Shown here: piece by piece, positions 2,831 through 63,770 of the stretch
How positions within the stretch are numbered: position 1 is the stretch's first letter
How the letters are laid out: the number at the start of each line of letters is the position of its first letter
Assembly (NCBI GenBank): GCA_964525875.1
Contig: CAZGJS010000002.1
Location: forward strand, 118,577 to 182,576
Direction of reading: 5' to 3'
Length of the DNA: 64,000 bases
Source of the DNA: an uncultured Eubacteriales bacterium
GTDB lineage: Bacteria > Acidobacteriota > Aminicenantia > Aminicenantales > Saccharicenantaceae
Program-made: the position numbers and the translations under genes
Notes under the pieces: generated by a model
Told to the model about the DNA's origin: nothing
Database searches by the model: none
The model's input: only the letters and a program-made list of their open reading frames with translations

Positions 2831-2831
2831 G

Positions 2832-6842: not shown

Positions 6843-7225
6843 GGCCGGAGCGGGACGTAAGCCGGATCCTGTTCCCGCCGAAACGGGCGACGGTCATTTG
6901 ACTAGGCCCCGGGTTGCCCCGGGGCTCGAGCGGCCGACCCGCCCCCTGGGACGGGCAGTCCCAAAACGGGGCTCGTTTGGCCTTGCTCCGGATGGGGTTT
7001 GCCTTGCCCCCGTCATCGCTGACGGGGCGGTGAGCTCTTACCTCGCCATTTCACCCTTGCTCCCCGGGGAGGCTGCGCCTGCCCTGGAGGGCGGTGTGTT
7101 TTCTGTGGCACTTTCCCCCGGTCGCCCGGGGTCGCGGTTAGCGACCATCCTGCCCTTCGGAGTCCGGACTTTCCTCCCCTCCTCCCTCGCGGGAAGGAGC
7201 GGCGACCGTCTCGCCCACTCCGGCC
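6843..7225 (-). ncRNA. rnpB: RNase P RNA (bacterial type A)
   Basis: The reverse complement contains GGGAGGAGGGGAGGAAAGTCCGGACTCCGAAGGGCAGG and AGCAAGGGTGAAATGGCGAGGTAAGAGCTCACC. It also contains ACCCCATCCGGAGCAAGGCCAAA and CCTAGTCAAATGACCGTCGCC...GAACAGGATCCGGCTTACG. These align with E. coli M1 RNA conserved regions (P4, P10-12, P15-P18). The 5' GGAGTGGGCGA and 3' TCCCGCTCC can form P1. Ends are approximate to about 5 nt. Confidence 0.85.
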
Positions 7226-22406: not shown

Positions 22407-22498
<92 letters not shown>

Positions 22499-22948: not shown

Positions 22949-23040
22949 TGGCGGAGAGGGCGGGATTCGAACCCGCGATCCCAATCGCTCGAGATAACGG
23001 TTTTCGAGACCGTCGCCTTCAACCACTCGGCCACCTCTCC
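22949..23040 (-). tRNA. tRNA-Ser (anticodon CGA)
   Basis: Reverse complement GGAGAGGTGGCCGAGTGGTTGAAGGCGACGGTCTCGAAAACCGT...CGCGGGTTCGAATCCCGCCCTCTCCGCCA. Anticodon loop CTCGAAA, long variable arm. The 3' 29 nt are identical to the other tRNA-Ser. Confidence 0.9.
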
Positions 23041-40558: not shown

Positions 40559-40620
40559 GCCTCGCCCCTCTATCCCTGACCTGGTTTTTCATCGAGTGAG
40601 CTGGGTCCCGGACCCGGTCG

Positions 40621-41379
40621 TCAGCGGACGATGAGCTGCCTCCCGTCCACGGTCATGATGCTCATCTCGATGTCATAGACGGCCTTGAGGAGGGCCTCGC
40701 TCAGGATGTCGCCGGGCCGACCGGCGGCCACGATCCCGCCGCCCTTCATGAACACCATTTCATCGGAGTACTTCACCGCCATGTCCAGGGTGTGCAGGGT
40801 GACGATGACGGTTTTTCCCATCTCCCTGGCCAGTCGCCGGATGAGCTCCAGGATCTCGATCTCGTGGCGGGGGTCGAGGAATGTGGTCGGCTCGTCGAGG
40901 AGCAGGATGTCGGGTTCCTGGGCCAGCGTCCGGGCGATGAGGACGAGCCGCCTCTCCCCCGAACTGAGCTCGAAAAACGGCCGGGCCGGGTAGTCGGCAA
41001 GTCCGACATAGCCCAGGGCCGCTTTGGCGGCCGCGACATCGTGGCGCGAAGGCGATGAGAAGACCGGGATGGAGGCGGCCCGGCCCGTCAGGACGAAATC
41101 CAGGACGGAATAGTTGAAGGTGAAGGCGGGCTCCTGGGGCACGTAGCCGACGAGTCGGGCCCGGCTCTTCCCGCTGAGGCCGGCCAGGTCTTTTCCGTCC
41201 ACGAAGACCGAGCCCCGGGACGCCGGGAGGACGGCGGCGAGGCACTTGAGGAAGGTCGACTTGCCTGCGCCGTTGGGGCCGACGATGGATGTCACCCGGG
41301 CCTCGGCGAACGTCTGGCCGGCGACCCGGAGCGAAAACTCCCCGTAGGAGAAATGCAGATACTCGACACGGACCTTCAT
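40621..41379 (-). CDS. ABC transporter ATP-binding protein (FecE/BtuD-type)
   Basis: Walker A GPNGAGKST, signature LSSGERRLVLIARTL, Walker B ILLLDEPTTFLD. Start at the internal ATG (MKVRVEYL) overlapping the permease stop (ATGA). Confidence 0.85.
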   Translation of the reverse strand: MKVRVEYLHFSYGEFSLRVAGQTFAEARVTSIVGPNGAGKSTFLKCLAAVLPASRGSVFVDGKDLAGLSGKSRARLVGYVPQEPAFTFNYSVLDFVLTGRAASIPVFSSPSRHDVAAAKAALGYVGLADYPARPFFELSSGERRLVLIARTLAQEPDILLLDEPTTFLDPRHEIEILELIRRLAREMGKTVIVTLHTLDMAVKYSDEMVFMKGGGIVAAGRPGDILSEALLKAVYDIEMSIMTVDGRQLIVR

Positions 41380-42395
41380 AGCCAGATCTTGCCCGATTTT
41401 TTCAGAAGGACGATGAAAAAGGGGATCCCGACGACACTCGTCAGGATGCCTATGGGAATTTCGAAGGAGGCCGCGCTCCGGGCGATGTCGTCGGCGACGA
41501 TGAGGAGCGAGGCCCCGCAAGCGGCCGAAAGCGGGATGACCTTCCGGTTGTCGGCGCCGACGGCCATGCGGACGAGGTGGGGGACGATGAGTCCGACCCA
41601 GCTGATGACGCCCGTGACGGCCGTGGCGGCGGCCGTCGTCAGAGCGGCCAGGACGACGACGGCGATCTTCTCCCGCTTGATGTTGACGCCCAGGGCGCGG
41701 GCTTCGTCGTCGCCGAGCGAAAGGACGTTCATCCGCCAGCGGAGGAGGATCAGCACGGTCACGCCGACGCCGATGACGGGCAGGGTCACACCGAGGTCCT
41801 TCCAGTCGGCCTGGGCCAGGCTGCCCATGAGCCAGAAGATCAGGGATTGAAGGGCATAGGGGTTGGCGAAGAACTCGACGAGAGACAGAAGGGCCTGGAA
41901 AAGGGCCGAGACGATGACGCCGCTGAGAAGGATGGTCACGACCTGCGAGGCGGCCTTGCCGGCGATGAACAGAACGGCCAGGACGGCGATGATGGCGAAT
42001 AAGAAGGCCGCGGCCTGGGCCGGGACCTTGCGACCGAGGAAAACGAGAGACAGGGCGGCGCCGAAGGCCGCGCCGTAGGATATTCCAAGACTGAATTCGA
42101 AGACCAGAGGATTCTTGAAGATGGCCTGGAGGGAAGCGCCGGACACCGCGAGAGCAGCGCCGGCGAAAAGCGCCAGGAGGAGCCGCGGCAGGCGGATACG
42201 GAAGAGGATGTCCGCATAGGGCGAGGGGCCGCCCGAGGCGCCGCCGGGAAAAATCGCGCCGACGATGGTTGTGAAGACAGCCTTGGGCGGAATGCGGTAG
42301 GCGCCGATGTTCAAGGACAGCAGGAGAAGGACGATAGGCAGCACGGCGGCCAGGACGAAAGCCGCCGTCGCTCTTTTATTCCGGTTTCCACTCAT
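41376..42395 (-). CDS. FecCD-family ABC permease (iron-siderophore/cobalamin-type importer)
   Basis: Polytopic membrane protein with the FecCD C-terminal region ...LTTAAATAVTGVISWVGLIVPHLVRM...IPIGILTSVVGIPFFIVLL. Start at the internal ATG (MSGNRNK). Confidence 0.8.
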   Translation of the reverse strand: MSGNRNKRATAAFVLAAVLPIVLLLLSLNIGAYRIPPKAVFTTIVGAIFPGGASGGPSPYADILFRIRLPRLLLALFAGAALAVSGASLQAIFKNPLVFEFSLGISYGAAFGAALSLVFLGRKVPAQAAAFLFAIIAVLAVLFIAGKAASQVVTILLSGVIVSALFQALLSLVEFFANPYALQSLIFWLMGSLAQADWKDLGVTLPVIGVGVTVLILLRWRMNVLSLGDDEARALGVNIKREKIAVVVLAALTTAAATAVTGVISWVGLIVPHLVRMAVGADNRKVIPLSAACGASLLIVADDIARSAASFEIPIGILTSVVGIPFFIVLLKKSGKIWL

Positions 42396-43455
42396 GGCAG
42401 TCGAGGATGCCGCAGAGGGCGCTGAAGAGGCCCTCCACTCCATAGAATTCCTTGAAAATGGCATCGCCTTCCCGGGTCAGGTCGAAGTTCGGGAAGCTTC
42501 CCGGATGAAAAAGCCGGGCGAGGTAGGCCGTTTCGACGAGGACGAGGGCCGGATCCCACCAGTACCAGAACCCGAACGTGTAATGGACGCGTCCATCCCG
42601 CACCGCCCGGACCGAGGCGATCCGGGGGTCCCCGAGGATACCCTCGACGGTCACCAGTCTCTCGGCCGGAGGATAATTGCCCTGGACGAGGATGACCTCC
42701 GGGTCCCAGAGCAGGATCTGTTCGAGGGATACGGTCGCGCCGGCCGTGCCGAGATAGGAAGGGAGGAGACGGGAGGCCAGGTTTCTTCCGCCGGCCGCTT
42801 CGACGGGCTCATAGGAGACCGGGGTCCGGAGGAGAGAGCCCCAAAAGGACAGGTAAACCGAGGGTCCGGCATCCGCTGCCCGGGGAGGGCCGATTCCGCG
42901 CACCAATTCCATGCGGCTTCCGAAGAAGGAAACGAGCTCCGCCGCGCGCTCCTCTCTGCCGAGGATCCGGCCGAGCGTTTCGATCTCCGCAAGGAGGTTC
43001 CGGAACTTGCCCATCGAGGCCAGCGCCACCACCGGCCGCTTCATTTTCCGCTCGATCGACTCGGTCATCCGGAATTCCGAAGGCGATGAAAAAATGATGT
43101 CGGGCCGCAGCCGGATGGCTTCCTCGTAGTTGAGTTCCTGGCCCTGGTTCGAAACGACCGGAAGGCGTTCGGAGGGAGGAAAAACGAGAGGAAAAAGCCG
43201 GTCGTGGTTGCGAAGAAAGAAGTCAACCCCCACCAGCCTCTTCCCCTCCCCCAGGGCGACGATGATCCGGGTGATCTCCGGCTCGAGCGAGATGATCCGC
43301 TCGACCCTGGCGGGGATGGCGACCGTCCGCCTCAGGCTGTCGACGACATTAATGGGACCTCCGGCCTGTCCGGCAACGCCGGCCGGCGCAGCCAGCATAA
43401 TCAGTACGGCCCCGCAGAGGAGACGATTTTTTCCGGCGCGGCCAAGGCATCTCAT
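42376..43455 (-). CDS. periplasmic substrate-binding protein, TroA-like/cluster-A (FecB/BtuF-type)
   Basis: Signal peptide and the class III PBP layout (RIISLEPEITRIIVALGEGKRLVGVD ... RPDIIFSS). Its start overlaps the upstream gene stop (ATGA). Confidence 0.75.
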   Translation of the reverse strand: MRCLGRAGKNRLLCGAVLIMLAAPAGVAGQAGGPINVVDSLRRTVAIPARVERIISLEPEITRIIVALGEGKRLVGVDFFLRNHDRLFPLVFPPSERLPVVSNQGQELNYEEAIRLRPDIIFSSPSEFRMTESIERKMKRPVVALASMGKFRNLLAEIETLGRILGREERAAELVSFFGSRMELVRGIGPPRAADAGPSVYLSFWGSLLRTPVSYEPVEAAGGRNLASRLLPSYLGTAGATVSLEQILLWDPEVILVQGNYPPAERLVTVEGILGDPRIASVRAVRDGRVHYTFGFWYWWDPALVLVETAYLARLFHPGSFPNFDLTREGDAIFKEFYGVEGLFSALCGILDCHEWKPE

Positions 43456-44123
43456 CGAAACCCGAAGACGACTTCGCCGAAGAATTCGGGCCGGTGGAAG
43501 TCGGGAGAAGGCGTGTCGACCGGGTTCCAGGCCCCATAGTGGGGGACTTCCGTCTCGTCACCGCACTTGTAGAAATTCGCTCTGGCCCGATGTCCGGGAA
43601 GGATATCCTGACCGTAGATCTTCCGGAAAAGGACGAGCGGCACCCTATACTCGAGGGTCCACGTGTCGCCGCCGTGCTCGCCGTCGCAGGGCCCGCCGAT
43701 CGACGAGGCGACGTCGAAGCCGGAAAGGTCTTCGGGCCAGAGCGGTTTTCGGTTGTTACGGTCGGGACCGAAGGCGGCCAATAGGATTCCCGCGGCGTTG
43801 GTCTCGAAATTGACGTATCCCTGCCGGCTCTCCGGGAAAGCGTCGATGAAGAACTCGACGCAGCTGTCCTTGTAGACGGGGTCCTGGAATTTCACGTATT
43901 TGACGCGAACCCGGCGCTCCCCCACCAGGAACCTGACATGGAGGGAACTGCGGGAATAACACAGCTTGACCTCGACAGGAGGGCGGTAGCCGTTGTCGAG
44001 CCAGAGATAGTGATCGATCCCGAGCGACGGGATCCCCGGCCAGGGCCCGGAGGCATCGCCGGGCAGGAACTCGGCGTCGACCGGCAGGATCGTGTACGAG
44101 CGTCGCGGTGCAGAGAGCGTCAT
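43452..44123 (-). CDS. cytoplasmic CBM9-like / DOMON-like domain protein
   Basis: 223 aa from the internal ATG (MTLSAPRR). The C-terminal PSPDFHRPEFFGEVVF resembles the family-9 carbohydrate-binding-module-like fold. No signal peptide. ATGA overlaps on both sides. Confidence 0.5.
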   Translation of the reverse strand: MTLSAPRRSYTILPVDAEFLPGDASGPWPGIPSLGIDHYLWLDNGYRPPVEVKLCYSRSSLHVRFLVGERRVRVKYVKFQDPVYKDSCVEFFIDAFPESRQGYVNFETNAAGILLAAFGPDRNNRKPLWPEDLSGFDVASSIGGPCDGEHGGDTWTLEYRVPLVLFRKIYGQDILPGHRARANFYKCGDETEVPHYGAWNPVDTPSPDFHRPEFFGEVVFGFR

Positions 44124-46249
44124 TTGACCGGCCCCGCACAGGCCTTGACCAACTTGGTCACGGCCGAGAGAACAGCGAGCTCGGCGTGGGCCGCCGGTTT
44201 GGCAGCTTCGGCCAGGATCGTCCCCTTTTCCTCCGCCCAGGCCGCCGGCTGGCTCTGCCCCTTCATGAGCCGGTCGAGCGCCTCGAGTCCGACCTCGCAG
44301 GCACGGGCCAGGCCGAGAGACAGAGGCTCGATCTCTCTCAAGGCCGGCGAAGCCGCGATGACCGGCAGGACCAGGACATGGTTGGCCTTCCATAGCGCCA
44401 GGGTCGCGCCGATCTCCCGGCCGAGCATCGGGTCTTTTCCAGCCAGGAATTGGTCGACTTTCTTCCTGAAGACCCGCGCGGCGAGGGATTCGGGCGCGCA
44501 GGCGTCGACGAAGCGCGTGAAGGGGGAAAGGCTGGTGTAGGCGGCCTGGCCGTGCCGCTGGTAATTCTTGAGCGGCTCGACGGCTTCCGCCAGGACCTGC
44601 AGCGGCTCGATCTGCGCGTCACCGGCGAGGCGTCTGAGCAGCATGTCCGGGTTCTTGAGATGCAGGAGGCCCAGCTCCTCGAGCTCGATGCTGACCGGAC
44701 CAAGCCGGCGGTACATTTCGTCGACGTTCGTCACCGAAGCCGGGGACCAGAGCCGCTCGGCGATGGCCGCCGTCCGCGGCCAGATCCGCGAGTCGATCGT
44801 TTCCGGCGTCACCAGCTCGGACCACATCGTCGCTTCGCCGCCCAGGATGAGCGCTTTCTGACGGTCGTCGAGCGGCGAATCCGGAGGCAGGGGGTCGTTC
44901 AGATAATGGACCTCGGCCGGCAGGCAGAGGTCGATGTAATAGCCGTTCGAGAGGATCCCCTGATATCCTTTTTGGGCGGCTTCGACGAGGGCCTTCGGGC
45001 CGCGCCACGAATGAATGACGATGTCGTTCGGCAGCCCGGGCTGAAAGACCTCGTCCCAGCCGACCATCTTCTTGCCGTACTTGGTCAGGATCTTGAGAAG
45101 ACGCTTGTTGAAATAGGCCTGGAGGGCGCCGTTGTCCACGAGGCCGTTCTTTTTCTTGAAGGCCTGGATGGCCGGGTTGGCGTCCCACTGATGGCCTTCG
45201 ACCTCGTCCCCACCGATGTGCAGGTACGGGTCGGGGAATAGGGCGCTCATCTCCTTGAGGAACGCGTCGAAGAAGGGATAGATCCGCTCGTCGGCCGGGT
45301 TGAAGGCCGGGCCGAAGACGCCGAACTTCCTTTCGATCCCGTAAGGGCCCGGCGCGCTCGAGAATTCGGGGTAGGCGACGAACCAGCTCGTCGAATGGCC
45401 GGGGATGTCGAACTCGGGCATGACCCGGATGCCGCGTTCGGCCGCGTAATCGATGACATCCCGGATCTGGGCCTGGGTGTAGAACATCCCATCGGAGCCG
45501 AGCTGGTGGAGCTTGGGAAACACCTTGGATTCGACCCGGAAGCCCTGGTCCTCGGTCAGATGCCAGTGGAAGACGTTCATCTTGACGGCGGCCATAGCGT
45601 CGAGGTTCCGCTTGATCACGTCGACGGGTTGGAAGTGCCGGCCGACGTCGATGAGCAGCCCGCGCCAGGTGAAGCGGGGCCTGTCGGCGATGTCGACGCA
45701 GGGAAAATAATAGCCTGCCTCGTCCGCGCTGAGAAGCTGGAGCAGGGTCTCGAGGCCGCGCAGGATGCCGATGTCGGTTTTCGCGCTCAGGACGACCTTC
45801 GCCGTATCGATTGAGAGAATGTAAGACTCGTCTTCGTTGGGCACGAGCGTGCCCGTCTTGTCGAAGCTGTAGAGGATTCCGCCTTCACCGGCCGGCTTTT
45901 GGACGGCCAGGAAATCCTGCTTCAGGAAGAGGCCCGTCCGGCCGGCCAACCGGGACATGAAACGGGCAGCGGCCCTGAAGGCACGGTCAGACGGAGCGAT
46001 GGGCAGGCGCTGGATGACGGAATCCCCGGACGGGAAACTGAGAATCTCGGGCTTCGTGCCGCCGATGACCAAGTTTTCATCGACCCTGAAGCGGCCCTCC
46101 CGGACGGTCACGCTCGCGGGAGCGGGCATGAGCTTGAGGACGCCGTCGACGGAAGCAGCGGCGGGCGCGTGTATCGCAAGGACGCTCCCGAGTGTCAAGA
46201 AGGTCAAGATGAAGAGAACCAGGGGTTTCGCCGACTGGTGTCCGGTCAT
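44120..46249 (-). CDS. beta-N-acetylhexosaminidase (GH20), secreted
   Basis: Signal peptide and GH20 catalytic region HIGGDEV (D-E pair), with RGLLIDVGRHF and the N-terminal chitobiase/zincin-like domain. 709 aa. Confidence 0.85.
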   Translation of the reverse strand: MTGHQSAKPLVLFILTFLTLGSVLAIHAPAAASVDGVLKLMPAPASVTVREGRFRVDENLVIGGTKPEILSFPSGDSVIQRLPIAPSDRAFRAAARFMSRLAGRTGLFLKQDFLAVQKPAGEGGILYSFDKTGTLVPNEDESYILSIDTAKVVLSAKTDIGILRGLETLLQLLSADEAGYYFPCVDIADRPRFTWRGLLIDVGRHFQPVDVIKRNLDAMAAVKMNVFHWHLTEDQGFRVESKVFPKLHQLGSDGMFYTQAQIRDVIDYAAERGIRVMPEFDIPGHSTSWFVAYPEFSSAPGPYGIERKFGVFGPAFNPADERIYPFFDAFLKEMSALFPDPYLHIGGDEVEGHQWDANPAIQAFKKKNGLVDNGALQAYFNKRLLKILTKYGKKMVGWDEVFQPGLPNDIVIHSWRGPKALVEAAQKGYQGILSNGYYIDLCLPAEVHYLNDPLPPDSPLDDRQKALILGGEATMWSELVTPETIDSRIWPRTAAIAERLWSPASVTNVDEMYRRLGPVSIELEELGLLHLKNPDMLLRRLAGDAQIEPLQVLAEAVEPLKNYQRHGQAAYTSLSPFTRFVDACAPESLAARVFRKKVDQFLAGKDPMLGREIGATLALWKANHVLVLPVIAASPALREIEPLSLGLARACEVGLEALDRLMKGQSQPAAWAEEKGTILAEAAKPAAHAELAVLSAVTKLVKACAGPVK

Positions 46250-46329
46250 GATCGCTCCTCCATCCTTCGGAATCCGAGGGACCAGTTATAGCACGGAGGA
46301 GCGCCGAAGAAAAGCGACAGGCGGGAAGG

Positions 46330-49655: not shown

Positions 49656-49741
49656 GAGTCCTAAAAAAAAGTGGCCCCTCTGAGGGACCATATGGGGACA
49701 TGAACTTCTTAACCGTGTCCCCGATGCGGGAGATTCAAGAC

Positions 49742-50998
49742 ATGACAAAGAAAGCACAGGTCCTCGGCGTTGGAATCGTCGGCGGCGGGTTCATCGCCCG
49801 CTTCCACATCAAGTCCTGGGTCGGCGTCCGCGACGCCGACATCTTGGGCGTCTTCGACCCCGACGCGAAACGGGCACGGGAGGCCTGCGCCCTGGCCAAG
49901 TCGCTCGGCGTCGGCGAGGCCAGGCCCTACGCCTCGATCACGGACATGGCCGCCGATCCGCGCATCGGAGCCCTCTGGATCTGCGCCCCGAACTACACGC
50001 GGGGCGAGGTCATGGAGGAGATCAGTCAGGCCGTGATCAAGGGGAAGGCCGAGCTCGTCGGCGTGGCCTGCGAGAAGCCGCTCGGCCGCAACGTCCGCGA
50101 AGCGAAGAAGATGCTCGAGCTCGCGAGGAAGGCCGGCCTCCTCGACGGCTACCTGGAGAACCAGGTCTTCTCCCCGGCCGTCGTCCGGGGCAAGGAGATC
50201 GTCTGGGCCCGCGGCGCCGCTCTCTCCGGGCCGCCCTACCTGGCCCGCGCGGCTGAGGAGCACAGCGGACCCCACATGCCCTGGTTCTGGGAAGGCACGC
50301 TCCAGGGCGGCGGCGTCCTCAACGATATGATGTGCCACTCGGTCGAAGAGGCCCGGTTCATGCTGACCCCGCCCGGCGCCCGCCGCGACGTCCTGACCCC
50401 GGTGAACGTCACCGCCTATACCAACTGCCTCAAGTGGCAGGAGCCCAGATACGCCGCCATCCTGGCCAAAAACAGCGGCGGCAAGACGGACTACCTCAAG
50501 CGGCCGTCCGAGGACTTCGCCCGGGCGCTCGTCGAATTCAAGGACAGGGCCGGCAAGATCCTCGTCGTCGAGACGACGACGAGCTGGTGCTACGTGGGAG
50601 CGGGTCTCCGCCTGAGCATGGAGCTTCTCGGTCCCGAGTACGCCCTCCAGATCAACTCGCTCGACGCCGGACTCAAGGTCTTCTTCAGCCGCGAGGTCAA
50701 GGGCAAGGCCGGCGAGGACCTCGTCGAGAAACAAAACGCCGAGATCGGGCTGATGCCCATCGTCGCCGACGAAGCCGGCGAATACGGCTACATCGCCGAG
50801 AACCGACACATGGTCCAGTCCTTCATCCGCGGCGTCCGGCCGGAGGAGAATTTCACCGACGGCGTCGCCGTCGCCGAACTTCTCATGGCCGCCTATCGGA
50901 GCGCCGAGCTGGGCAAGACCCTGGCCTTCCCGTTCAAAGGCATGGATGATTACGTCCCGCCCGTAGCCCGTGGGAAATGGAACCCGAAGTCGAAGTGA
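49742..50998 (+). CDS. Gfo/Idh/MocA family NAD(P)-dependent oxidoreductase
   Basis: N-terminal Rossmann motif KAQVLGVGIVGGGFIARFH and the conserved EKP motif (ACEKPLGRN). Start set at MTKKAQ. The tracked ORF starts at 49700. Confidence 0.8.
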   Translation: MTKKAQVLGVGIVGGGFIARFHIKSWVGVRDADILGVFDPDAKRAREACALAKSLGVGEARPYASITDMAADPRIGALWICAPNYTRGEVMEEISQAVIKGKAELVGVACEKPLGRNVREAKKMLELARKAGLLDGYLENQVFSPAVVRGKEIVWARGAALSGPPYLARAAEEHSGPHMPWFWEGTLQGGGVLNDMMCHSVEEARFMLTPPGARRDVLTPVNVTAYTNCLKWQEPRYAAILAKNSGGKTDYLKRPSEDFARALVEFKDRAGKILVVETTTSWCYVGAGLRLSMELLGPEYALQINSLDAGLKVFFSREVKGKAGEDLVEKQNAEIGLMPIVADEAGEYGYIAENRHMVQSFIRGVRPEENFTDGVAVAELLMAAYRSAELGKTLAFPFKGMDDYVPPVARGKWNPKSK

Positions 50999-51018
50999 GA
51001 ACGAACGAAGGAGAACTC

Positions 51019-52500
51019 ATGAAACGCATTCCCGCCATCCTCGCCCTCGCCGTCTTCCTCGCCGCAGCGGCCGCCCCGGCCCTCGCGGCGGGCACGCCGG
51101 CCGCACCGCAGATCCGGCACATCTCGCCCGAGCTCCAGAAAGCCGTCGCTTCGACGGACTATGCGGGCGTGCGGATCAAGAAATTCCCCTTCGCCTCGGA
51201 GGCCTGGACGTTCCGCAATTTCACCTTTGTCGAGACCCTCCGGATGCTCAAGGAGCTGGGTGTCGCCGCCGTTGAGGCCTTCCCCGGCCAGGCCCTCGCG
51301 GCCGAGCTCCCCGGCGCACGCTTCGACGAGACGATGACGGCCGAACAGGTCGCCTTCGCCAAGGAGGCCCTCAAGGAGGCCGGCGTCACGCTCTACGGCT
51401 ACGGCGTCGTCGACATCGGCAAGACCGAAGAAAGCATGCGCAAGGTCTTCGACTTCGCCCGCAAGATGGGCATCCGCGTCGTCGTCTGCGAGCCGGCCGA
51501 CGACGACTTCACCCTGCTCGAGAAGCTGGTCAAGGAATACGACATCAAAATCGCCATCCACAACCACCCTGCGCCCTCGAAGTACAACCTGCCCGAGACC
51601 GTCTTCAGCCATATCGACGGCAAGGACCCGCGCATCGGCTCCTGCGCCGACAGCGGCCACTGGATGCGGGGCCTGAACGACCCGCGCGAGGCCTTCAAGC
51701 TCCTCCAGGGCCGTATCCTCGACGTCCACCTCAAGGATCGCAGCGATTTCGGCACGGCCAAGGGCGTCGACGACGTCTCTTGGGGCGCGGGCAAGGGGAT
51801 GATCCGCGACCTCCTGGCCGAGCTGACCCTCCAGGACTACGACGGCTACCTGACTATGGAATACGAGAACGAATCCGAGGTCGGCGACCCCCGGCCCGCC
51901 TTCCGCAAGAGCATCGCCTACGTCAAGAGCGTCACCTATTTCGAGGGCTACACCCAGATCCTCCGGCGTTCCGGCGGCCGCTACGAGAAACACGGCTGGA
52001 ACCACTATGGGCCGGGCTACTTCGAGGTCGACGAGAGGACGGGCGTCCTCAAGGGCCAGAGCGGCATGGGCCTCCTCTGGTACTCGAAAAAAGTCAGGGA
52101 CTTCGTCCTCGAGTTCGATTTCAAGTGTTCGACCGAGGCCACGAACTCGGGCATCTTCCTCCGCGTGCCCTCCGTCCCCGTGAGCGACGACTATATTTAT
52201 CATTCGATCGAGATCCAGATCGACGATAAGTCGACGGGCATCCATCACACCGGGGCCGCCTACGACATCGAGGCGCCCAAGGCCCTGGCCTCGCTCCCCA
52301 CGGGCGAATGGAACCACTTCAAGATCGAATTCAAGGGCATGCGCCTCAAGATCGAGCTCAACGGCAAGCCGGTCATGGACTGGGAGGCCAGGCCGGGCGG
52401 CAAGGTCAAGGACATCTCTCCCGAGGGCTACATCGGCCTCCAGAACCACGACAGCCAGTCCCCTCCCTACTTCCGGAACGTCTTTCTTAAAGAGCTCTGA
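51019..52500 (+). CDS. secreted fusion of a xylose-isomerase-like TIM-barrel (sugar phosphate isomerase/epimerase family) and a DUF1080 (3-keto-disaccharide hydrolase-like) domain
   Basis: GAAGGAGAA RBS, then signal peptide MKRIPAILALAVFLAAAAAPALAAG. The TIM-barrel part carries IAIHNHP...EYEN metal-site-like motifs. The C-terminal about 200 aa (WNHYGPGYFEV...GYIGLQNHDS...FRNVFLKEL) fits the DUF1080 jelly-roll pattern. Confidence 0.65.
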   Translation: MKRIPAILALAVFLAAAAAPALAAGTPAAPQIRHISPELQKAVASTDYAGVRIKKFPFASEAWTFRNFTFVETLRMLKELGVAAVEAFPGQALAAELPGARFDETMTAEQVAFAKEALKEAGVTLYGYGVVDIGKTEESMRKVFDFARKMGIRVVVCEPADDDFTLLEKLVKEYDIKIAIHNHPAPSKYNLPETVFSHIDGKDPRIGSCADSGHWMRGLNDPREAFKLLQGRILDVHLKDRSDFGTAKGVDDVSWGAGKGMIRDLLAELTLQDYDGYLTMEYENESEVGDPRPAFRKSIAYVKSVTYFEGYTQILRRSGGRYEKHGWNHYGPGYFEVDERTGVLKGQSGMGLLWYSKKVRDFVLEFDFKCSTEATNSGIFLRVPSVPVSDDYIYHSIEIQIDDKSTGIHHTGAAYDIEAPKALASLPTGEWNHFKIEFKGMRLKIELNGKPVMDWEARPGGKVKDISPEGYIGLQNHDSQSPPYFRNVFLKEL

Positions 52501-52549
52501 TCGGCCATCAGGCGCCTGGGAGAGCTGTTAGATAAAAGGAGAAGTGAGC

Positions 52550-53878
52550 ATGACAGCGGTAAAGAGTACGCGCAGCAGACTGTTTATCATGATGGTGATG
52601 GAGTTCTTCATCTGGGGCGCATGGCTTCCGCTGATATTCAGCTATTTGCCGAGTCTCGGATTCACCACGACCCAGCAAGCCTGGATCCTGAATGCCTTCC
52701 CCCTCTCGGCCATCGTCGGCATGTTTTTCAGCAACCAGTTCGCGGATCGACGTTTCGCCGCCGAGAAGTTCCTGGGTTTGAGTCACCTCATCGGCGGACT
52801 CGCGATACTCGGGCTGGGGTTCACCCGCGAGTTCTGGCCCTTTTTTGTCCTGATGTTCGTGCATTGCCTTTTCTACGTCCCGACCATCTCGATCGCCAAC
52901 TCGATCGCCTTCACCCACATGAAGGACGCGCAGAAGGAGTTCGGTTTTGTCCGCATGGGGGGCACCATAGGCTGGATTCTCGCCGCCTGGCCATTCACGT
53001 TCATCCTTGTGGATTGGGCCAGAGTTAAGGCAGCGGCGCCGCATGGAGTGGTCGCTTGGCTCGGAACAGTGCTCGGCTCGGGACTCTCCGGCCAAGCGTT
53101 GAAACAAGCGACGCGCTGGACATTCATCGTAGCGGGCGTCGTCTCTCTGGGCCTGGCCGCCTACAGCCTGCTTCTCCCGCACACGCCGCCAAAGAAAAAA
53201 AAGCTGGATGCTTCCGCTGCCGAACGCTTCGCGTGGCTTGAAGCGGTGAGGTTGCTCAAGCACCCGTTCGTACTGGTCCTTTGGTTCTTGACGTTCGTCG
53301 ACGCTTTCGTTCATAACTCGTATTTCAACTGGACCGCTTCGTTCCTCGGCGCTAGGCCGGAGGCCGGAGGAGTCGGCATTCCCGGCAACTGGATCATGCC
53401 CGTCATGAGTTTGGGCCAGGTCTCGGAGATCCTGACCATGCTCGCCCTGGGAGCCGTGTTGAAAAAACTCGGCTGGCGGATGACGATGCTCATAGGCATT
53501 CTTGGGCATGCCGGCCGGTTCGCGGTATACGCCTTTTTCCCCTCCCAGCCTTGGATGATCGTGGCTATCCAGGTCTTGCATGGCATCTGCTATGCTTTCT
53601 TCTTCGCCACGGTTTACATTTTTGTGGACGCGTATTTCCCTAAGGACGTTCGTTCGAGCGCGCAGGGGCTGTTCAATGTGATGATTCTCGGCCTCGGAGT
53701 GCTGGCGGCCAACTCGCTGTGCCCGTGGCTGATACAATCGGTCTTCACCGTCAACGGCGTTACAGACTTCCGCTCGATGTTCTTGCTGCCGTGCCTGACC
53801 GCGCTGGGAGCCGCTATCTTGCTGGCTGTGGCCTTCCGGCCTCCGGCAAGGGTCGAGACGGGCCAAGGCCTATCTTAG
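52550..53878 (+). CDS. MFS transporter, nucleoside:H+ symporter (NHS/NupG-like) family
   Basis: N-terminus [23 protein letters not shown], the NHS family hallmark, with 12 TM helices. AGGAG lies 8 nt upstream of the ATG. Confidence 0.7.
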
Positions 53879-53891
53879 GGTTCACTCGGAT

Positions 53892-54107
53892 TTGCGGGCT
53901 GCGATGAAGATCCGCTACCTCGACGGCAACAGACTGTACTACGCCTTCCTCGCCGGCGGACAGGCGGTCATCCGCGTCCCAACGTTTCTTCTTGTCCGGG
54001 TCTCCGGCATCCCGATGCTCGAGAAAAAATACGCCGGGAACGCGGAGTTCCAAGCCTACGCCCGCAGGACGAACGCCTTCGTCCCCTGGTTCCCGAAAAA
54101 GCCTTAG
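53892..54107 (+). pseudogene. C-terminal fragment of an ICMT/PEMT/DUF1295-like membrane methyltransferase
   Basis: The 71-aa ORF ends ...[32 protein letters not shown]. This matches the conserved C-terminal EE..L...FG..Y..Y...VP.FIP tail of that family. It lacks the TM/SAM-binding body. Confidence 0.3.
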
Positions 54108-57100
54108 AAGCCCGGGCTGATGCTCAACTGCAGATGCCAGCCGCGGACCGGCCGGTCGATCGGGTAGACGTAGTTCAACCCGAGGATGAGGTAGCCGAAG
54201 AGGTTCGTCCTCAGGCCGATACCGGCGCTGCTGATGGGCTTCCGGTTGCCGCCCAAGAACGTGGGTTTGACGTCCTCCGGGGTCTCCCCGCCCCACCAAT
54301 AACCGGGGTTCTGGGCGTAGGCGATGCCCCAGTCGAAGAAACCGAAGAATTCGAGGGGCCAGGCGCCGAAGTAGCCCTTGCCGATGCCCAGGACACCGAG
54401 CAGGGGAAAGCGCAATTCCACGTTGCCCATTAGCATCTTGCTACCGTAGAGCCGGTTGGGATCGAAGGCGTTGTCCGGATCCTGTTGGTACACGCTCAAC
54501 TCAGCGCTGGAGAACGACTCGTAGCCGCGGACGAGGTCCCAGTAGGCGATATAAAGGGGATAGAACCGATCGTCCTCGGCGTCCTTCCCATAGCGCCCCA
54601 CGTGAAGAGCCCGGAAGGCCAGCGTGAAAGGCCTCAACGGCATGAAGTACTTACGGAAATCCGCCGAGGCCGTTATAAAGTTTATGCTTCCGATGGCCGG
54701 AGACACGGACAGGCCGATATTCTGTCCGAGGATGGGGCTCGTCGCCCCGAATATCCCGCTGTCATAATAATAGCCCGCTGTCAGGTAGCCGAAGGACATC
54801 GCCGGGGGCGTCGGCACTCTCTCTTTTTCGTAGGCGATCAGGCCGCCGCTGACCAAGGAATAGATCCGGGTGTAAAGCGTCCGTTGGAAATCCTGGATGC
54901 GGAAACCCGCGCTCAGCGAGAACCGGCTGACCTGGCTGAAGGGATAGGAGCCGAAGACGGAGAAGTCGTAGTTGATGAGCCGGTAGATATCCCGCACCTC
55001 GAAGATCGCGGGTTCTCCCGCGAATTCGTCCTCGAACAGATAGTAATAGGGATAAGGATAGACGATCCGCTGGGCCGCCGAGCCCCAGTTGAAGCGTCCT
55101 TTGTTGTTGAGGTAGGCCAGGACGCCGGAGGTGTCGACGATTTGCGACCCGGTGAACGCGGTCGTGATGATCGTCTGGGTGCCGAGCATGTCGCTCCAGA
55201 ACGCGGAGACGCCGCCTGCGGCGTAGGTCCCATAGCGGTCGGCGCCGATGCCGATGGAAGCCGGCGAAACATAGTCCAGGGCGAGCTTGGGCTTGTATGC
55301 GGAAATCGCGAAGTTCGTGTCCTTGGGCAGGCCGAAGAGCGGGTTCTTGAGGAGGCCAAGGAGTGCGCCCTCGGCTTCCGCGCGCGGCGGCAGGAGGGCC
55401 GGGTTGCGGTCGAACTGAGCCAGGAAAGCCTGCCCCTCGAGGACCTTCGCGTCGTCGATCGAATAGACCGTGTAGTAACTGTCCTGGTAGCCGGAGAAGA
55501 CGACCCGGCCGGTGTTCAGGGCGACCGAAATGGCGGGACTGAGCTCGGTGATGCCGCTGATACCCGTGTACAGGTTCGTGACCTGGAAAAGTTGGCCCGA
55601 GGCGATATCGATCCGGTAGAGGTCGGTCTTGCCGTTCTGGTCGGAGAGGAAATAGAGCCCCTTCGAGTCCGCGGTCCATTGGGGGTTGATGTTCTTGCCG
55701 TTGGGGAAGCCCAGGAGCTTCTGGATCCGGCCCGACTCGACGTCGAGCAGGGCCAGCTCGTAGTTCCCGATATCGACCCAGTCGAGGTTGGTCGAGAACC
55801 GCTCGGTAACGAAGGCGATGGTCTTGCCGTCGGGCGACCAGACCGGCTGGAGGTCGGCGAAGACGTCCCTTGTCATCTGTTTGAGGACGTTGTCTTTGAG
55901 GTCGTAGATGAAGAGGTCCGAGACCCCGCCGGTCAGGGCGGTGAAGGTGACGTAGCGGCCGTCGGGCGACCAGGCCGGGCTGAGGATCTCGGCCAGTTCG
56001 CCGAAGGGGATCTCCCGCTCGATCTTGTCCTTCTTCATGTCGAGGATGATCAAGACCGGGCGGCCCTTGGCCACGCCGCCGAAGACAAATTTCTCGCCCG
56101 TGGCGTCCCAGGAGCCGGCGGACTTGATGAATTGGATGCTCTCGAAATGGGGGTCCACGGCGGTCGAGATGATCTTCCGCCTGATCTTGCCGGCGTCGGC
56201 ATCCGCCAGGTAAAGGTCGATCGAGAACATGTCCCGGGTCGAAAGAAACACGAGTTCTTTGCCGTCGGGGCTGATGGACGGCGCGATATTGTAGGGATTG
56301 GATTCCACGCCTTTGAACAACGCCTTGGCGAACTTGTCGGGCGCCTGGGTTTTTTCGATGAGCCCGTTGTAGGCGTCCTGCATCGATTTATGCCAATCGG
56401 CCGAAAGCTGCTTCAGCTTGATGCCGAGCACGCCCTCGAGGATGATCTCGTAGTCCCCGGCGCGGCCGACGGACTTCATCATCTTGCCGATGACTTCGTC
56501 CCCCCATCGTCCGGTGATGTACGCCCACACGGCCTGGCCCCAGCGGTAGGGGAAATACTTGTAGGAGTTTCCAAGCTTGCTGATCTGCGGCAGTTCCTTG
56601 CGGCGGACGGCGTCCCGCATCCACATCGAGGTGTTCTGATCGACCGGCCCGATGGACAGATACTCGGCCATGCCCTCGATGAACCAGAGGGGAATGCGGA
56701 GGCCCATCTCGTTCCCCCGGGCCTGGTCGGAATGGCCCTGGGCCATGATATCGTACTGGAAGGCGTGGACGAGCTCGTGTCCGATGACGTGGTCGGTTTC
56801 GGAGAGCGAGGCGCCATAGGGCAGGACGATCCGGCGCTTGAACGACTCGGTGACGCCGCCGGTGCCTTCGCCCAGGATCTCGCTGATGACGGTCGTCTGC
56901 TGGAATTCCGGGCCGCTCCCGTAGAGGATGAGCGGCTGACGGCCCTTGAGCTCATGGTTGAACATCCGGGAGAGACGCGCATACCAGCGCTCGGCCATGA
57001 GGGCGGCCAGCTTGACCGTCTGTTCGTCCTGGAGATAGAAGTAGATGTCGTAGTGCCGGGTCTTCATGATCTTGAAATCGAACTTCTGGTACTGAACCTT

Positions 57101-57205
57101 GTTCCGGCCGTAATACTGGGCCTGGAGGCCCGGCGCGCCCACGCCGGCCAGGAAGCCCACGAGGCTCAACGCAATTAGGACTCTGGAAAGAGCGGTATGC
57201 CGCAT
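54104..57205 (-). CDS. multidomain surface protein: HExxH metallopeptidase (MA-clan-like) + TolB-like PD40 beta-propeller repeats + C-terminal Omp85/BamA-type beta-barrel
   Basis: Start at [21 protein letters not shown] with GAGGAGG 7 nt upstream, followed by a signal peptide. [10 protein letters not shown]...[11 protein letters not shown] (HExxH...E zincin). PD40-like repeats [56 protein letters not shown]. The C-terminal about 400 aa is a beta-strand-rich barrel ending ...[12 protein letters not shown]. The tracked ORF starts at 57295. Confidence 0.65.
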
Positions 57206-57553
57206 GGATGTCCTCCTCTGAATACGGACGTATTGTAGCGGAAAAAGACCAAAGCGGGAAATGCCCTCCCGAACGGGAGGCTTTGATGCGAGCATAGGTC
57301 GAAACTCCTTTCGACCCCTTTCCGCCGATATCTTACCGGAAACATCGGGTTTTGTCTATAACGCACTAGGATGCAGCTAAGTTGCTGGCACATGACGCCA
57401 CCCGGGCTGTGATGGGGACCATCCAGAGCCCCCGTAGCGGAGGGGGACCCATCGGCTTGCCGATGGGGGAACCGCCGGGACTGGTTCCCGGGGGGGCCGG
57501 GGGATATGGGTGGTCCCCGTCGCAGCCAAAAGGGGTGGCGTCAAAGGGGCGTG

Positions 57554-62045: not shown

Positions 62046-63770
62046 ATGAACAGGAAACGACTCATCGCCGTCGGCGGGACACTCGTCCTGGCCGTCGTCC
62101 TGGCCGGCCTCATTTCGACGGCCGGGAGCCAGGCCCTGGCCGGCCTCGACGACATCGTCCTCGCCGGCGAAGCGTGCACGTCCATCCTCGTCGGCAAGGA
62201 CGCCTCGACGGACGGCTCCGTCATGACGACGCACACCTGCGACTGCGGCACGTGCGACTGGACCTGGCGTCACGTCCCGGCCGCCGACCACAAGCCCGGC
62301 TCGACCCGAAAGATCTACCATATCTCGCAGTACAAGACCTGGCCGCCGTCGGAGGGCCTCAAGTGGGACCTCTACAAGAAGGACTTCGCCGGTCTCGAGA
62401 TCCCCGAAGTCCCCCGAACCTACGCCTACCACCACGGCATGTTCGGCTACATGAACGAGAAGCAGGTTTCGATCGGCGAATCGACCATCGGCTGTCAGCG
62501 CAAGATGCAAAACCCAACGCCGGCGGCCAAGCTCGACCTGACCATGCTGACGCTGCTGGGGATGGAACGAGGCGGCACGGCTCGCGAGGCCATCCAGGTC
62601 ATGGGCTCTCTCGCCGAAAAGTACGGCTACGGCTTCCATGACGACGGCGAGATGCTGGCCGTGGCCGATACGAAGGAGGCCTGGATCTTTGAGATCATGC
62701 CCGCGGGACCCCTGTGGACCCCGGAGAGCGGCAAGCCCGGCGCCGTCTGGTGCGCCCAGCGCGTCCCCGACGATCACGTCAGCGTCTGCCCCAACGAATC
62801 GCGCATCGGCGAGATCGACCTCGACAACAAGGACTTCTTCATGGCCTCGTCGAATGTCGTCTCGCTGGCCGTCGACATGGGCTACTACGACCCGAAGGGC
62901 GGCAAGCCCTTCAACTGGAAGAGGGCCTACTCCCCGGTCGAGGGCAGCGCGGCCGGCACCAACGGCCGGATCCAGAGGCTGTGGCGCTTCTTCGATATCG
63001 TCGCCCCGTCCAAGAAGTTCAAGCCCGAGACGCCTAACATGGACCTGCCGTTCTCGGTGAAACCCGACGCCAAGGTTTCCGTCCAGGACGTCATGAACAT
63101 GACCCGGGACCGGAGTTACGGGACGCCCTTCGACCCGGTCATGGGCATCCGCGGCGGGCCGTTCAAGAACCCCAACTACTACCGCGGGACGCGGGTCATC
63201 GACCACGGCCTGGCCGAGTACTCAACGGTCACCCAAAGCAGGACCGGCCTGCCCGACGCGATCGGCGGCATCGTCTGGATCGCCTTCGGCTCCCAGGACA
63301 CATCCTGCTACATGCCGCTTTACGCCGGAATGACCGAGATGCCCAAGTCCTTCATGGTCGGAGACCATTGGACCTTCAGTCGGGATTCGGTCCGCTGGGC
63401 CTTCGACTACACCGATTTCCACGTCCAGGTCGCCTACTCCGAGGCCATCAAGGACGTCATGGCGGCCCAGGCCAAATACGAAGGGGAAACGATCGCCCGC
63501 ATCCCGGAGATCGACCAGCAGGCCCTGGCCCTCTACAAAAAGAAACCGGCCAAGGCAGCCGAGTTCCTGACAGGGTTCGCGCTCAATAACGTCACGACGG
63601 TCGTCAACGCCTGGTGGAAGCTCGGCGACGACCTCCTCGTCAAGTACAACCGGCTCTACCTCTACAACGCCGAGAAACGGGGCTTCTCCCGCGGCCAGCC
63701 GGCGACTCCCGACTGGTGGAAGAAGGCCGTTCGGGCGTTCGACATTCTCATGGAACCCGAGAAGAAGTAG
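62046..63770 (+). CDS. peptidase C69 family dipeptidase, copy 2 (tandem paralog)
   Basis: AGGAGG RBS, signal peptide, then GEACTSILVGKDASTDGSVM. Colinear with copy 1 over the full length. Confidence 0.8.
   Translation: MNRKRLIAVGGTLVLAVVLAGLISTAGSQALAGLDDIVLAGEACTSILVGKDASTDGSVMTTHTCDCGTCDWTWRHVPAADHKPGSTRKIYHISQYKTWPPSEGLKWDLYKKDFAGLEIPEVPRTYAYHHGMFGYMNEKQVSIGESTIGCQRKMQNPTPAAKLDLTMLTLLGMERGGTAREAIQVMGSLAEKYGYGFHDDGEMLAVADTKEAWIFEIMPAGPLWTPESGKPGAVWCAQRVPDDHVSVCPNESRIGEIDLDNKDFFMASSNVVSLAVDMGYYDPKGGKPFNWKRAYSPVEGSAAGTNGRIQRLWRFFDIVAPSKKFKPETPNMDLPFSVKPDAKVSVQDVMNMTRDRSYGTPFDPVMGIRGGPFKNPNYYRGTRVIDHGLAEYSTVTQSRTGLPDAIGGIVWIAFGSQDTSCYMPLYAGMTEMPKSFMVGDHWTFSRDSVRWAFDYTDFHVQVAYSEAIKDVMAAQAKYEGETIARIPEIDQQALALYKKKPAKAAEFLTGFALNNVTTVVNAWWKLGDDLLVKYNRLYLYNAEKRGFSRGQPATPDWWKKAVRAFDILMEPEKK

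Follow-up and report, generated by a model that had tools for sequence, protein, structure and literature searches.

FjGH20 (6YHH) is a periplasmic chitobiase from the chitin utilisation locus of Flavobacterium johnsoniae (PMC7426924), and an H-x-G-G-D-E motif with a catalytic Asp-Glu pair has been defined for the GH20 family to which it belongs (PMC7426924). True CBM9 modules, such as the one in Xyn10A of Thermotoga maritima (1I82), have no catalytic activity; they are appended to a secreted glycoside hydrolase and bind glucans at the reducing end, through a Trp pair. The importers YiuABC of Yersinia, TM0189-0191 of Thermotoga and MolABC of Haemophilus share a three-component architecture with a FecCD permease and a single-domain ATPase. 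Here we describe an operon, located in a 64,000-nucleotide stretch of Candidatus Aminicenantes DNA (hereafter the window), in which a gene of the first type is joined to a CBM9_2 gene and to an importer with the same architecture as the third.

The five-gene operon and its putative promoter

An initial annotation of the window placed five consecutive minus-strand genes between positions 40621 and 46249. These boundaries were reproduced by an independent gene caller: on an identical Logan contig (L165), the same five lengths were recovered, with the same overlaps of 4, 4, 20 and 4 nt. The genes follow one another without gaps.

46309-46314 (approximate): -35-like hexamer CTTTTC, about 17-18 nt 5' of TGCTATAA
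46286-46293, minus strand: extended -10 element TGCTATAA, promoter-like, directly 5' of GH20
46253-46303, minus strand: inverted repeat CGCTCCTCC(G)T ... ATGGAGGAGCG, flanking the -10 element on both sides
44120-46249, minus strand: GH20 gene, 709 aa
44120-44123, minus strand: GH20/CBM9_2 junction, ATGA stop/start overlap
43452-44123, minus strand: CBM9_2 gene, 223 aa
43452-43455, minus strand: CBM9_2/SBP junction, ATGA stop/start overlap
42376-43455, minus strand: binding protein (SBP) gene, 359 aa
42376-42395, minus strand: SBP/permease junction, 20-nt overlap
41376-42395, minus strand: FecCD permease gene, 339 aa
41376-41379, minus strand: permease/ATPase junction, ATGA stop/start overlap
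40621-41379, minus strand: ATPase gene, 252 aa

The initial annotation had counted four ATGA overlaps in addition to the 20-nt one. The junctions do overlap, the 20-nt one included, but five genes have only four junctions and the ATGA overlaps number three; the 20-nt overlap contains an ATGA where the permease gene starts, and this was probably counted as the fourth. A lone ATGA overlap is common in compact GC-rich operons, but here relatives have kept the junctions. Among related loci, the permease/ATPase junction is -4 nt in all 59 cases, the SBP and permease genes overlap in all 65 (by 20 nt in 55), and the GH20/CBM9_2 junction is -4 nt in 23 of 30. The CBM9_2/SBP junction is the loosest of the four: 10 of 53 loci have -4 nt there, most distances are below 30 nt, and gaps in other loci run from 2 to 275 nt.

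The extended -10 element is kept in about 30 Aminicenantes loci, where it lies directly 5' of GH20, or of CBM9_2 if GH20 is missing. This 8-mer occurs three times in the window against an expectation of 0.13, and another copy is found just 5' of a different gene. The right arm of the inverted repeat is the GH20 Shine-Dalgarno sequence, and anti-SD pairing at GH20 is possible: an alignment fold of 17 loci gave nine pairs, four of them with compensatory changes, while the single-sequence fold was not significant (z = -0.79). No Fur-box-like site with seven or fewer mismatches was found in the promoter region, and the Rfam riboswitch search gave no match at the operon. Downstream of the ATPase gene lies a convergent gene (DAO). 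The -10 element just 5' of GH20, the gapless gene order and this convergent boundary support the view, already put forward in the initial annotation, that the five genes form a single polycistronic unit. In one subclade a promoter-like TGnTATAAT site stands immediately 5' of SBP (16 of 92 loci, against about one expected).

Predicted gene products

The GH20 protein matches PF00728 (catalytic TIM barrel, 1.3e-94) and PF02838 (GH20b N-terminal domain, 3e-10), carries the catalytic motif HIGGDE at residues 344-349 and has a hydrophobic signal-like segment at its N-terminus. It aligns with 6yhh at 4e-177 (query residues 85-700 onto chain residues 36-671), and this alignment takes in the unusual C-terminal helical bundle, such that all three domains of FjGH20 are matched. 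On sequence grounds it is a predicted periplasmic chitobiase of the FjGH20 type, an exo-beta-N-acetylhexosaminidase.

The CBM9_2 protein matches PF16011 (1.5e-42), and its homologues are single-domain. We found no signal peptide or hydrophobic signal-like segment at its N-terminus; as a stand-alone protein of 223 aa, it is ruled out as a classical appended module of a secreted glycoside hydrolase. Its closest structure, 4jpq (5.8e-28), is BACUNI_03838, itself uncharacterised, whose PDB title reads putative carbohydrate-binding protein and mentions no cofactor. The predicted model (pLDDT 81.7) has a CBM9/DOMON-like beta-sandwich fold, for which 4jpq ranked first, followed by CBM9 and then by the haem-binding EBDH gamma subunit; Foldseek placed CBM9, with matches including 1i82 and 7nwo, well above haem proteins. 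In contrast to true CBM9, the family has far more invariant polar residues: many carboxylate, His and Cys residues are invariant, among them two Cys and two His conserved family-wide.

The SBP has a signal-like N-terminus and belongs to cluster A (PF01497, Peripla_BP_2, 8e-23). Its nearest structures, at 24-26% identity, are 2etv, YiuA (6b2x/9if3), MolA (3psa) and 4hn9; its closest kin bind metal chelates or oxyanions, and the haem-binding HmuT, ShuT and RhuT are more distant than the YiuA group. No NCBIfam equivalog passed its cut-off (best PRK14048, 40.7 bits against 374). Ferric-siderophore binders of cluster A-2 (YiuA/CeuE type) have a basic Arg/Lys triad in the binding cleft, which in YiuA consists of Arg64, Arg165 and Arg223; in a pairwise alignment, Glu60 and Trp205 stand opposite the first and third of these, and the second falls in a gap next to Ser147; the SBP has other invariant Arg residues (R63, R82, R210, R266) and an invariant Trp-rich motif, FWYWWDP. 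The permease is of FecCD/BtuC type (PF01032, 4.7e-85), with BtuC, FhuB and FecD as its best NCBIfam models, all under their cut-offs. The ATPase (PF00005) carries Walker A GPNGAGKS (34-41), signature LSSGE (138-142) and Walker B ILLLDEP (158-164). Together, the three proteins are the parts of a predicted type II (BtuCD/FecBCDE-like) ABC importer. No TonB-dependent receptor was found among the scanned window genes, nor within 10 kb in relatives.

The domain matches and N-terminal segments agree with earlier descriptions of a secreted GH20 beta-N-acetylhexosaminidase, a cytoplasmic CBM9-like protein and a secreted binding protein with FecCD permease and ATPase. The SBP, described there as TroA-like, is closest to YiuA, TM0189 and MolA. 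A firm grouping with characterised ferric-siderophore binders was not observed, given the low identity and the three Arg positions that are not conserved at the aligned columns.

Recurrence and independent loss of the modules

The linkage of GH20, CBM9_2 and FecCD genes recurs in dozens of related loci from uncultured Aminicenantes, and the concern that relatives might never show it can be set aside. CBM9_2 lies directly 5' of the orthologous SBP in 61 of 71 informative loci, and CBM9_2 or GH20 is present in 69 (one locus, L122, was re-classed by hand, its CBM9_2 match being visible). The five-gene unit is widespread in Candidatus Aminicenantes and confined to that lineage. Among the 42 loci with both flanks captured, 18 have GH20, CBM9_2 and the ABC genes, 11 have CBM9_2 and ABC without GH20, six have GH20 and ABC without CBM9_2, five have GH20 and CBM9_2 without ABC, and two have CBM9_2 alone. 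Two loci, L001 and L003, share about 87% DNA identity with the window but lack the three transporter genes, the missing stretch lying precisely between the stop codon of CBM9_2 and the convergent DAO gene. The operon is a real, lineage-specific composite, and each of its modules can be lost alone.

Over the same divergence range, synteny takes in the entire neighbourhood (DUF2207-DUF4342-...-DAO-FeS oxidoreductase-PAP2-GGT). Identities of CBM9_2 and SBP correlate no better (r = 0.89) than those of SBP and DAO (r = 0.89), and all flanking genes co-diverge equally; within this syntenic context, adjacency thus argues only weakly for a common function. The CBM9_2-SBP-permease-ATPase block is also intact in a second, unrelated context, where SpoIID-SpeE precedes it and a GH109-like gene follows. 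In both contexts the block is adjoined by an exported N-acetylhexosaminidase-family gene, GH20 in one and the GH109-like gene in the other.

Outside the phylum, none of 65 CBM9_2 loci has a FecCD neighbour. The neighbours found there include sugar kinases, NagA-like amidohydrolases, NagB/PIG-L, GH20 and MFS transporters, and are of sugar-salvage type in 18 of the 65 loci. Examples are NTP_transferase-APH kinase-CBM9_2-GalE (L023; the same genes in another order in L019), ROK-NagB/PIG-L-CBM9_2-GH20 (L078) and MFS-ROK-APH-CBM9_2 (L040). In Flavobacteria, exported CBM9_2 members adjoin a sugar dehydrogenase-cytochrome c fusion. In the window itself, nag and kinase genes are absent.

Explanations of the linkage and comparison with known systems

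The functional readings offered in the initial annotation (a glycosylated ligand, a haem carrier or a new substrate class) are not established, in view of independent module loss, the promoter-like site in a subclade, equal co-divergence and the lack of FecCD genes beside CBM9_2 outside the phylum. We tentatively prefer to view the operon as a composite of separable amino-sugar and type II importer modules, co-expressed but neither needing the other. In the former, the periplasmic GH20 chitobiase would release GlcNAc/GalNAc, accompanied by the cytoplasmic CBM9_2, whose family elsewhere in bacteria lies in sugar and N-acetylhexosamine salvage operons. The importer, by analogy with all its characterised relatives (YiuA, MolA, CeuE, haem and B12 systems), would import a metal in chelated form or another bulky ligand of comparable scarcity, and co-expression would reflect a lineage-specific gene arrangement preserved by strong local synteny. 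We infer that substrate is not handed directly between the modules, and we slightly favour a metal chelate over a hexosamine-linked ligand. The intact block in two flank contexts, each with an N-acetylhexosaminidase-family gene, and the near-constant presence of CBM9_2 or GH20 next to SBP count against separable modules. Siderophore, haem and B12 uptake loci of diderms usually, though not obligatorily, have a TonB-dependent receptor and a Fur box or cobalamin riboswitch nearby; the lack of all three here and the unmatched YiuA triad speak against a metal-chelate importer.

These same observations would fit a possible, though somewhat doubtful, alternative, in which GH20 or the GH109-like enzyme trims N-acetylhexosamine oligosaccharides or glycoconjugates, the importer carries the product, filling the slot held by MFS carriers beside CBM9_2 in other phyla, and CBM9_2 binds or converts the reducing end, e.g. 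as an anomerase in a 'GalM slot' or as a small glycosidase. Tight gene coupling, the sugar-salvage neighbours of CBM9_2 elsewhere, the reducing-end binding known for the CBM9 fold, the many invariant CBM9_2 residues and the Trp-rich SBP motif are also consistent with it. Against this, no sugar carrier is known to us among type II importers or cluster-A binding proteins, and a literature search found none; moreover, the modules disappear independently of one another (six fully flanked loci keep the importer but lack CBM9_2), a subclade has an internal promoter-like site, other invariant SBP Arg and Tyr residues could still form a chelate site, and nag and kinase genes are missing from the window. 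It is unlikely that the importer serves specifically for an N-acetylhexosamine-derived ligand (GlcNAc, chitobiose or a HexNAc glycoside) with CBM9_2 as an amino-sugar salvage enzyme, be it a small glycosidase with a beta-sandwich fold or a reducing-end anomerase that does the work of GalM before anomeric kinases act. Should this be so, the operon would provide the first case of such a ligand for a type II ABC importer with a cluster-A binding protein, and CBM9_2 would be an amino-sugar salvage enzyme not recognised before. We regard it as improbable that CBM9_2 partners the importer in the cytoplasm as a DOMON-like handler of haem or iron, either a haem chaperone or a ferric-chelate-releasing protein (cf. 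HmuS/ChuS and siderophore-interacting reductases), with GH20 as a passenger. The family-wide Cys and His pairs, the cytochrome c fusion in Flavobacteria and the standing of CBM9_2 as the importer's most constant neighbour would agree with such a role, but most members outside the phylum lie with sugar kinases or hydrolases rather than haem or iron genes, and the Foldseek ranking, the title of 4jpq and the distance of haem-type SBPs point away from it. Removal by GH20 of a periplasmic GlcNAc cap from a metallophore or cofactor before chelate import would reconcile the importer's metal-chelate ancestry with the GH20 linkage. This seems very improbable, as no GlcNAc-capped metallophore is known to us or was found in a literature search, 11 fully flanked loci without GH20 keep CBM9_2 and the importer, and the cytoplasmic sugar-module protein is left without a role.

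Compared with known systems, the CBM9_2 gene of Firmicutes, which lies among genes for an APH-family kinase, a nucleotidyltransferase and a GalE-like epimerase, holds the position of GalM in galETKM. The likeness to the Leloir galETKM and NahK/AmgK anomeric-kinase salvage routes would be one of analogy only: GalM and CBM9_2 have no fold similarity (3nre, E = 0.32), and the Aminicenantes operon lacks kinase, transferase and epimerase genes. The hmuRSTUV haem loci likewise combine an importer operon with a cytoplasmic accessory protein; however, HmuS/ChuS differ in fold from CBM9_2, the receptor gene is absent here and haem-type SBPs are more distant. Relative to YiuABC, TM0189-0191 and MolABC, the present operon adds a cytoplasmic CBM9_2 gene and usually GH20, with no TonB-dependent receptor gene nearby. 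Whereas FjGH20 is encoded alongside GH18 chitinases in a SusC/SusD polysaccharide utilisation locus, its counterpart here is accompanied by neither chitinase nor SusCD, and its gene, as read from the sequence, is translationally coupled to those for CBM9_2 and the FecCD importer.

The operon and its putative promoter

Five minus-strand genes of the window form a real, conserved, lineage-specific operon of three separable modules: a GH20 hexosaminidase, the PF16011 protein CBM9_2, and an importer cassette (ABC) of binding protein (SBP), FecCD permease and ATPase. The features of this locus are as follows.

44120-46249, minus: GH20, 709 aa (PF00728, 1.3e-94; also PF02838)
43452-44123, minus: CBM9_2, 223 aa (PF16011, 1.5e-42)
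42376-43455, minus: SBP, 359 aa (PF01497, 8e-23)
41376-42395, minus: permease, 339 aa (PF01032, 4.7e-85)
40621-41379, minus: ATPase, 252 aa (PF00005; Walker A, signature and Walker B motifs present)
46253-46303, minus: inverted repeat CGCTCCTCC(G)T...ATGGAGGAGCG, with compensatory changes at four of nine pairs in 17 loci

Stop and start codons overlap as ATGA at GH20/CBM9_2, CBM9_2/SBP and permease/ATPase, and SBP and permease overlap by 20 nt; the overlaps noted in the initial annotation thus stand, but there are four junctions and not the five (four ATGA plus one of 20 nt) counted there. A separate gene prediction, on a public contig of identical sequence (L165), agrees in every gene length and overlap, and junction spacing is conserved among relatives, most loosely at CBM9_2/SBP. 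The closest loci to the window belong to Candidatus Aminicenantes MAGs. A same-strand DUF4342 gene lies 80 bp upstream and a convergent FAD oxidoreductase gene (DAO) 62 nt downstream. That the genes constitute one operon, as first proposed, is borne out by the overlapping junctions, the conserved -10 before GH20 and the convergent DAO after the ATPase; a consensus scan for intrinsic terminators and sigma-70 promoters between the operon genes gave nothing above shuffles. Hydrophobic, signal-like N-termini on GH20 and SBP, and none on CBM9_2, agree with the initial annotation of GH20 as secreted and CBM9_2 as cytoplasmic. GH20 has the catalytic motif HIGGDE and aligns along the whole length, C-terminal helical bundle included, with FjGH20, a chitobiase of F. 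johnsoniae (6yhh; 4e-177); FjGH20 is described as a periplasmic enzyme that converts imported chito-oligosaccharides to GlcNAc (PMC7426924).

Directly upstream of GH20 is CTTTTC-N17-18-gTGCTATAA, kept in about 30 related loci and containing the promoter-like extended -10 element TGCTATAA; where GH20 is absent, the element precedes CBM9_2 instead. Within the window the -10 8-mer has three copies where 0.13 would be expected; besides the GH20 copy, one stands directly upstream of another gene, and the motif therefore looks like the organism's own extended -10. In the inverted repeat, the right arm coincides with the GH20 ribosome-binding site and the left arm falls in the spacer from -35 to -10; only in transcripts reading through from DUF4342 could the repeat sequester the Shine-Dalgarno sequence. 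Every relative has a small variable hairpin after the -10. The promoter region has no Fur box match at seven or fewer mismatches, and an Rfam search of the whole window recovered RNase P RNA and two tRNAs only, with no riboswitch or other known RNA upstream of the operon. Other features of the window include:

6843-7221, minus: RNase P RNA class A (267.9 bits)
22410-22498 and 22952-23040, minus: two long (89-nt) tRNA genes (Rfam)
54104-57295, minus: peptidase-MA/PD40 (tricorn-like) gene, 1063 aa
60284-62017 and 62046-63770, plus: two tandem Peptidase_C69 paralogues

The window also encodes a single-polypeptide pyruvate:ferredoxin oxidoreductase (12657-16187, minus) and three consecutive Proton_antipo_M (complex I/Mrp-type) subunits (24-4262, plus), which are consistent with an anaerobic lifestyle. 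A plus-strand cluster at 49700-53878 comprises a Gfo/Idh/MocA oxidoreductase, a xylose-isomerase-like TIM barrel fused to a 3-keto-disaccharide hydrolase domain, and a nucleoside:H+ symporter-like MFS protein; it is conserved (also in the related locus L162 and on the identical contig L165) and looks like a 3-keto-glycoside sugar pathway.

Recurrence, module loss and synteny

In a CBM9_2-centred scan of reference genomes, GH20 was directly upstream in 12 of 15 Aminicenantes loci, and all five genes were present in eight. Two loci whose DNA is about 87% identical to that of the window (L001 and L003) lack the three transporter genes exactly between the CBM9_2 stop and DAO; the cassette is replaced by 760-830 bp, whose ORF has no Pfam match. 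In a further locus, L005, GH20 is missing too. An SBP-centred metagenome scan yielded 80 loci (51-89% identity), 71 of them with sufficient upstream sequence. CBM9_2 is present in 61 of these: 28 have GH20-CBM9_2-SBP, 22 have CBM9_2-SBP with the upstream side cut off, 10 have another gene upstream, and L122 was added by hand on its own CBM9_2 match. Eight loci have GH20-SBP without CBM9_2, and two have neither. The linkage of GH20, CBM9_2 and importer, for which the initial annotation proposed a comparison with relatives, recurs in dozens of related loci. The 42 loci with both flanks captured, a seeding-biased set that includes a few near-duplicate contigs, are divided by module content below.

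Module combinations in the both-flank set (42 loci; seeding-biased, a few near-duplicate contigs included)
GH20-CBM9_2-ABC: 18 loci
CBM9_2-ABC: 11 loci
GH20-ABC: 6 loci
GH20-CBM9_2: 5 loci
CBM9_2 alone: 2 loci

Immediately before the SBP start, TGnTATAAT is found in 16 of 92 loci, all of one subclade, against about one expected. This suggests an internal promoter from which the importer can be transcribed alone in that subclade, possibly as a leaderless mRNA.

6-15 nt before the predicted SBP start codon: TGGTATAAT or TGATATAAT element, in L094, L095, L104, L105, L110, L111, L113, L115, L116, L119-L122, L125, L126 and L141

Two genomic contexts were distinguished. Context A, of which L162 and L163 are deletion variants, reads DUF2207-(unknown)-DUF4342-[GH20]-[CBM9_2]-[ABC]-DAO-FeS oxidoreductase-PAP2-GGT. 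Context B (about 20 loci, 11 with both flanks captured) reads SpoIID/SPOR-spermidine synthase-CBM9_2-ABC, followed by a convergent GH109-like gene with a TAT signal and DUF1028.

L138:9860-11242 and equivalents in about 17 context-B loci, convergent to ATPase: GH109-like gene, TAT signal (PF21252, 3.4e-60)

Since both contexts hold CBM9_2-ABC, this four-gene block has been kept through one rearrangement, and in each an exported N-acetylhexosaminidase-family gene adjoins it (GH20 in A, GH109-like in B). Measured against the window, CBM9_2, SBP and DAO identities rise and fall together to an equal degree across loci (r 0.86-0.95), and context A is syntenic over the same divergence; that genes stay together in context A is therefore little guide to function. 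A special CBM9_2-SBP tie from co-divergence was rejected, as the flanking DAO correlates equally well. Between operon end and DAO, many relatives have a variable gene for a hypothetical protein of about 230 aa without Pfam match (L002:6172-6873, L003:8791-9492, L161:10736-11419); it is absent from the window (40559-40620).

The CBM9_2 family

PF16011 is widespread, with over 3,000 members (E<=1e-5), and has a solved structure, the uncharacterised 4jpq, which is the only match to CBM9_2 (5.8e-28); a GalM-like fold gave no significant match. Literature searches returned nothing relevant on PF16011 function, 4JPQ/BACUNI_03838, 9HRJ, FecCD with GH20, or CBM9 with DOMON and an ABC transporter. In some flavobacterial members the N-terminus resembles a signal or lipoprotein sequence.

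Outside Aminicenantes, a sample of 65 CBM9_2 loci (about 40% identity; L016-L080) had no FecCD neighbour. Enriched among close same-strand neighbours were APH-family kinases (7), amidohydrolases (7), ROK kinases (6), GH32 (5), sugar dehydrogenase-cytochrome c fusions (5), enolase-superfamily enzymes and AraC/HTCS regulators. Examples are NTP_transferase-APH-CBM9_2-GalE-like, a Leloir-like anomeric salvage order (L023; reordered in L019), MFS-ROK-APH-CBM9_2 (L040) and ROK-NagB/PIG-L fusion-CBM9_2-GH20 (L078). These neighbourhoods share a theme, salvage of sugars and often of N-acetylhexosamines.

Among 60 members from several phyla, about 16 residues are 95-100% conserved, two Cys and two His included (D86, C88, E90, N105, E107, N109, W155, N183, K186, C187, H195, W199, D208, H210, R211 and E213), more than a passive binding module would be expected to keep. 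Together with the salvage-operon contexts, this conservation suggests that PF16011 is an enzyme not yet described or binds a specific ligand; the neighbourhoods, in at least three phyla, give a clear biochemical hypothesis of sugar or hexosamine salvage, independent of the importer. A natural fusion of CBM9_2 to DUF436 (L021:7959-9158; PF04260, 7.4e-77) is a possible Rosetta-stone clue to family function.

The binding protein and the cargo of the importer

By sequence and predicted structure (pLDDT 85.4), SBP is closest to TM0189 (2etv), YiuA (6b2x; 9if3), MolA (3psa) and 4hn9, with which it shares 24-26% identity, and lies further from binders of haem, B12 and hydroxamates. Classification by profile, as called for initially, gave no NCBIfam match that comes near its cut-off. 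The YiuA structure 9if3 contains Fe-DHB-Arg-Ser, and a basic triad Arg64/Arg165/Arg223 has been proposed for YiuA (PMC5683015); these positions align to Glu60, a gap and Trp205 of SBP, which has other invariant Arg and Tyr residues elsewhere. Neither a TonB-dependent receptor nor nag genes were found among the roughly 60 ORFs scanned in the window.

We tentatively favour a composite operon with a metal-chelate-type importer, because of the cargo of every characterised relative, the loss of modules one by one, the promoter-like site inside the operon, the overall synteny and the absence of the linkage from the CBM9_2 loci sampled elsewhere. Hexosamine-linked uptake is a somewhat less probable reading; in its favour are the persistence of CBM9_2-ABC as a block in both contexts, each with a hexosaminidase-family gene beside it, the near-universal adjacency of CBM9_2 or GH20 to this SBP clade, the divergence of SBP, the habitual company of transporters and sugar kinases around CBM9_2, and the lack of a detected receptor, Fur box or riboswitch. 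That CBM9_2 itself handles haem or iron we consider improbable, and a glycosylated metallophore as the ligand more so. Whichever class the cargo belongs to, we infer it rather than observe it directly. If the modules of the favoured composite operon are simply co-transcribed, the locus is a cautionary case, since membership of one operon in so syntenic a lineage gives little ground for assuming a shared function; the importance of the locus would rise if SBP binds a sugar or CBM9_2 is an enzyme.

GH20, CBM9_2 and the importer are components of known kinds, in a combination undescribed in the literature searched. To our knowledge, the cargo of type II ABC importers is always metal-related (siderophores, haem, corrinoids, Ni-histidine, Mo/W oxyanions), and an SBP clade with such constant links to chitobiase and cytoplasmic CBM9-like genes offers a concrete case in which to test for another class of cargo.
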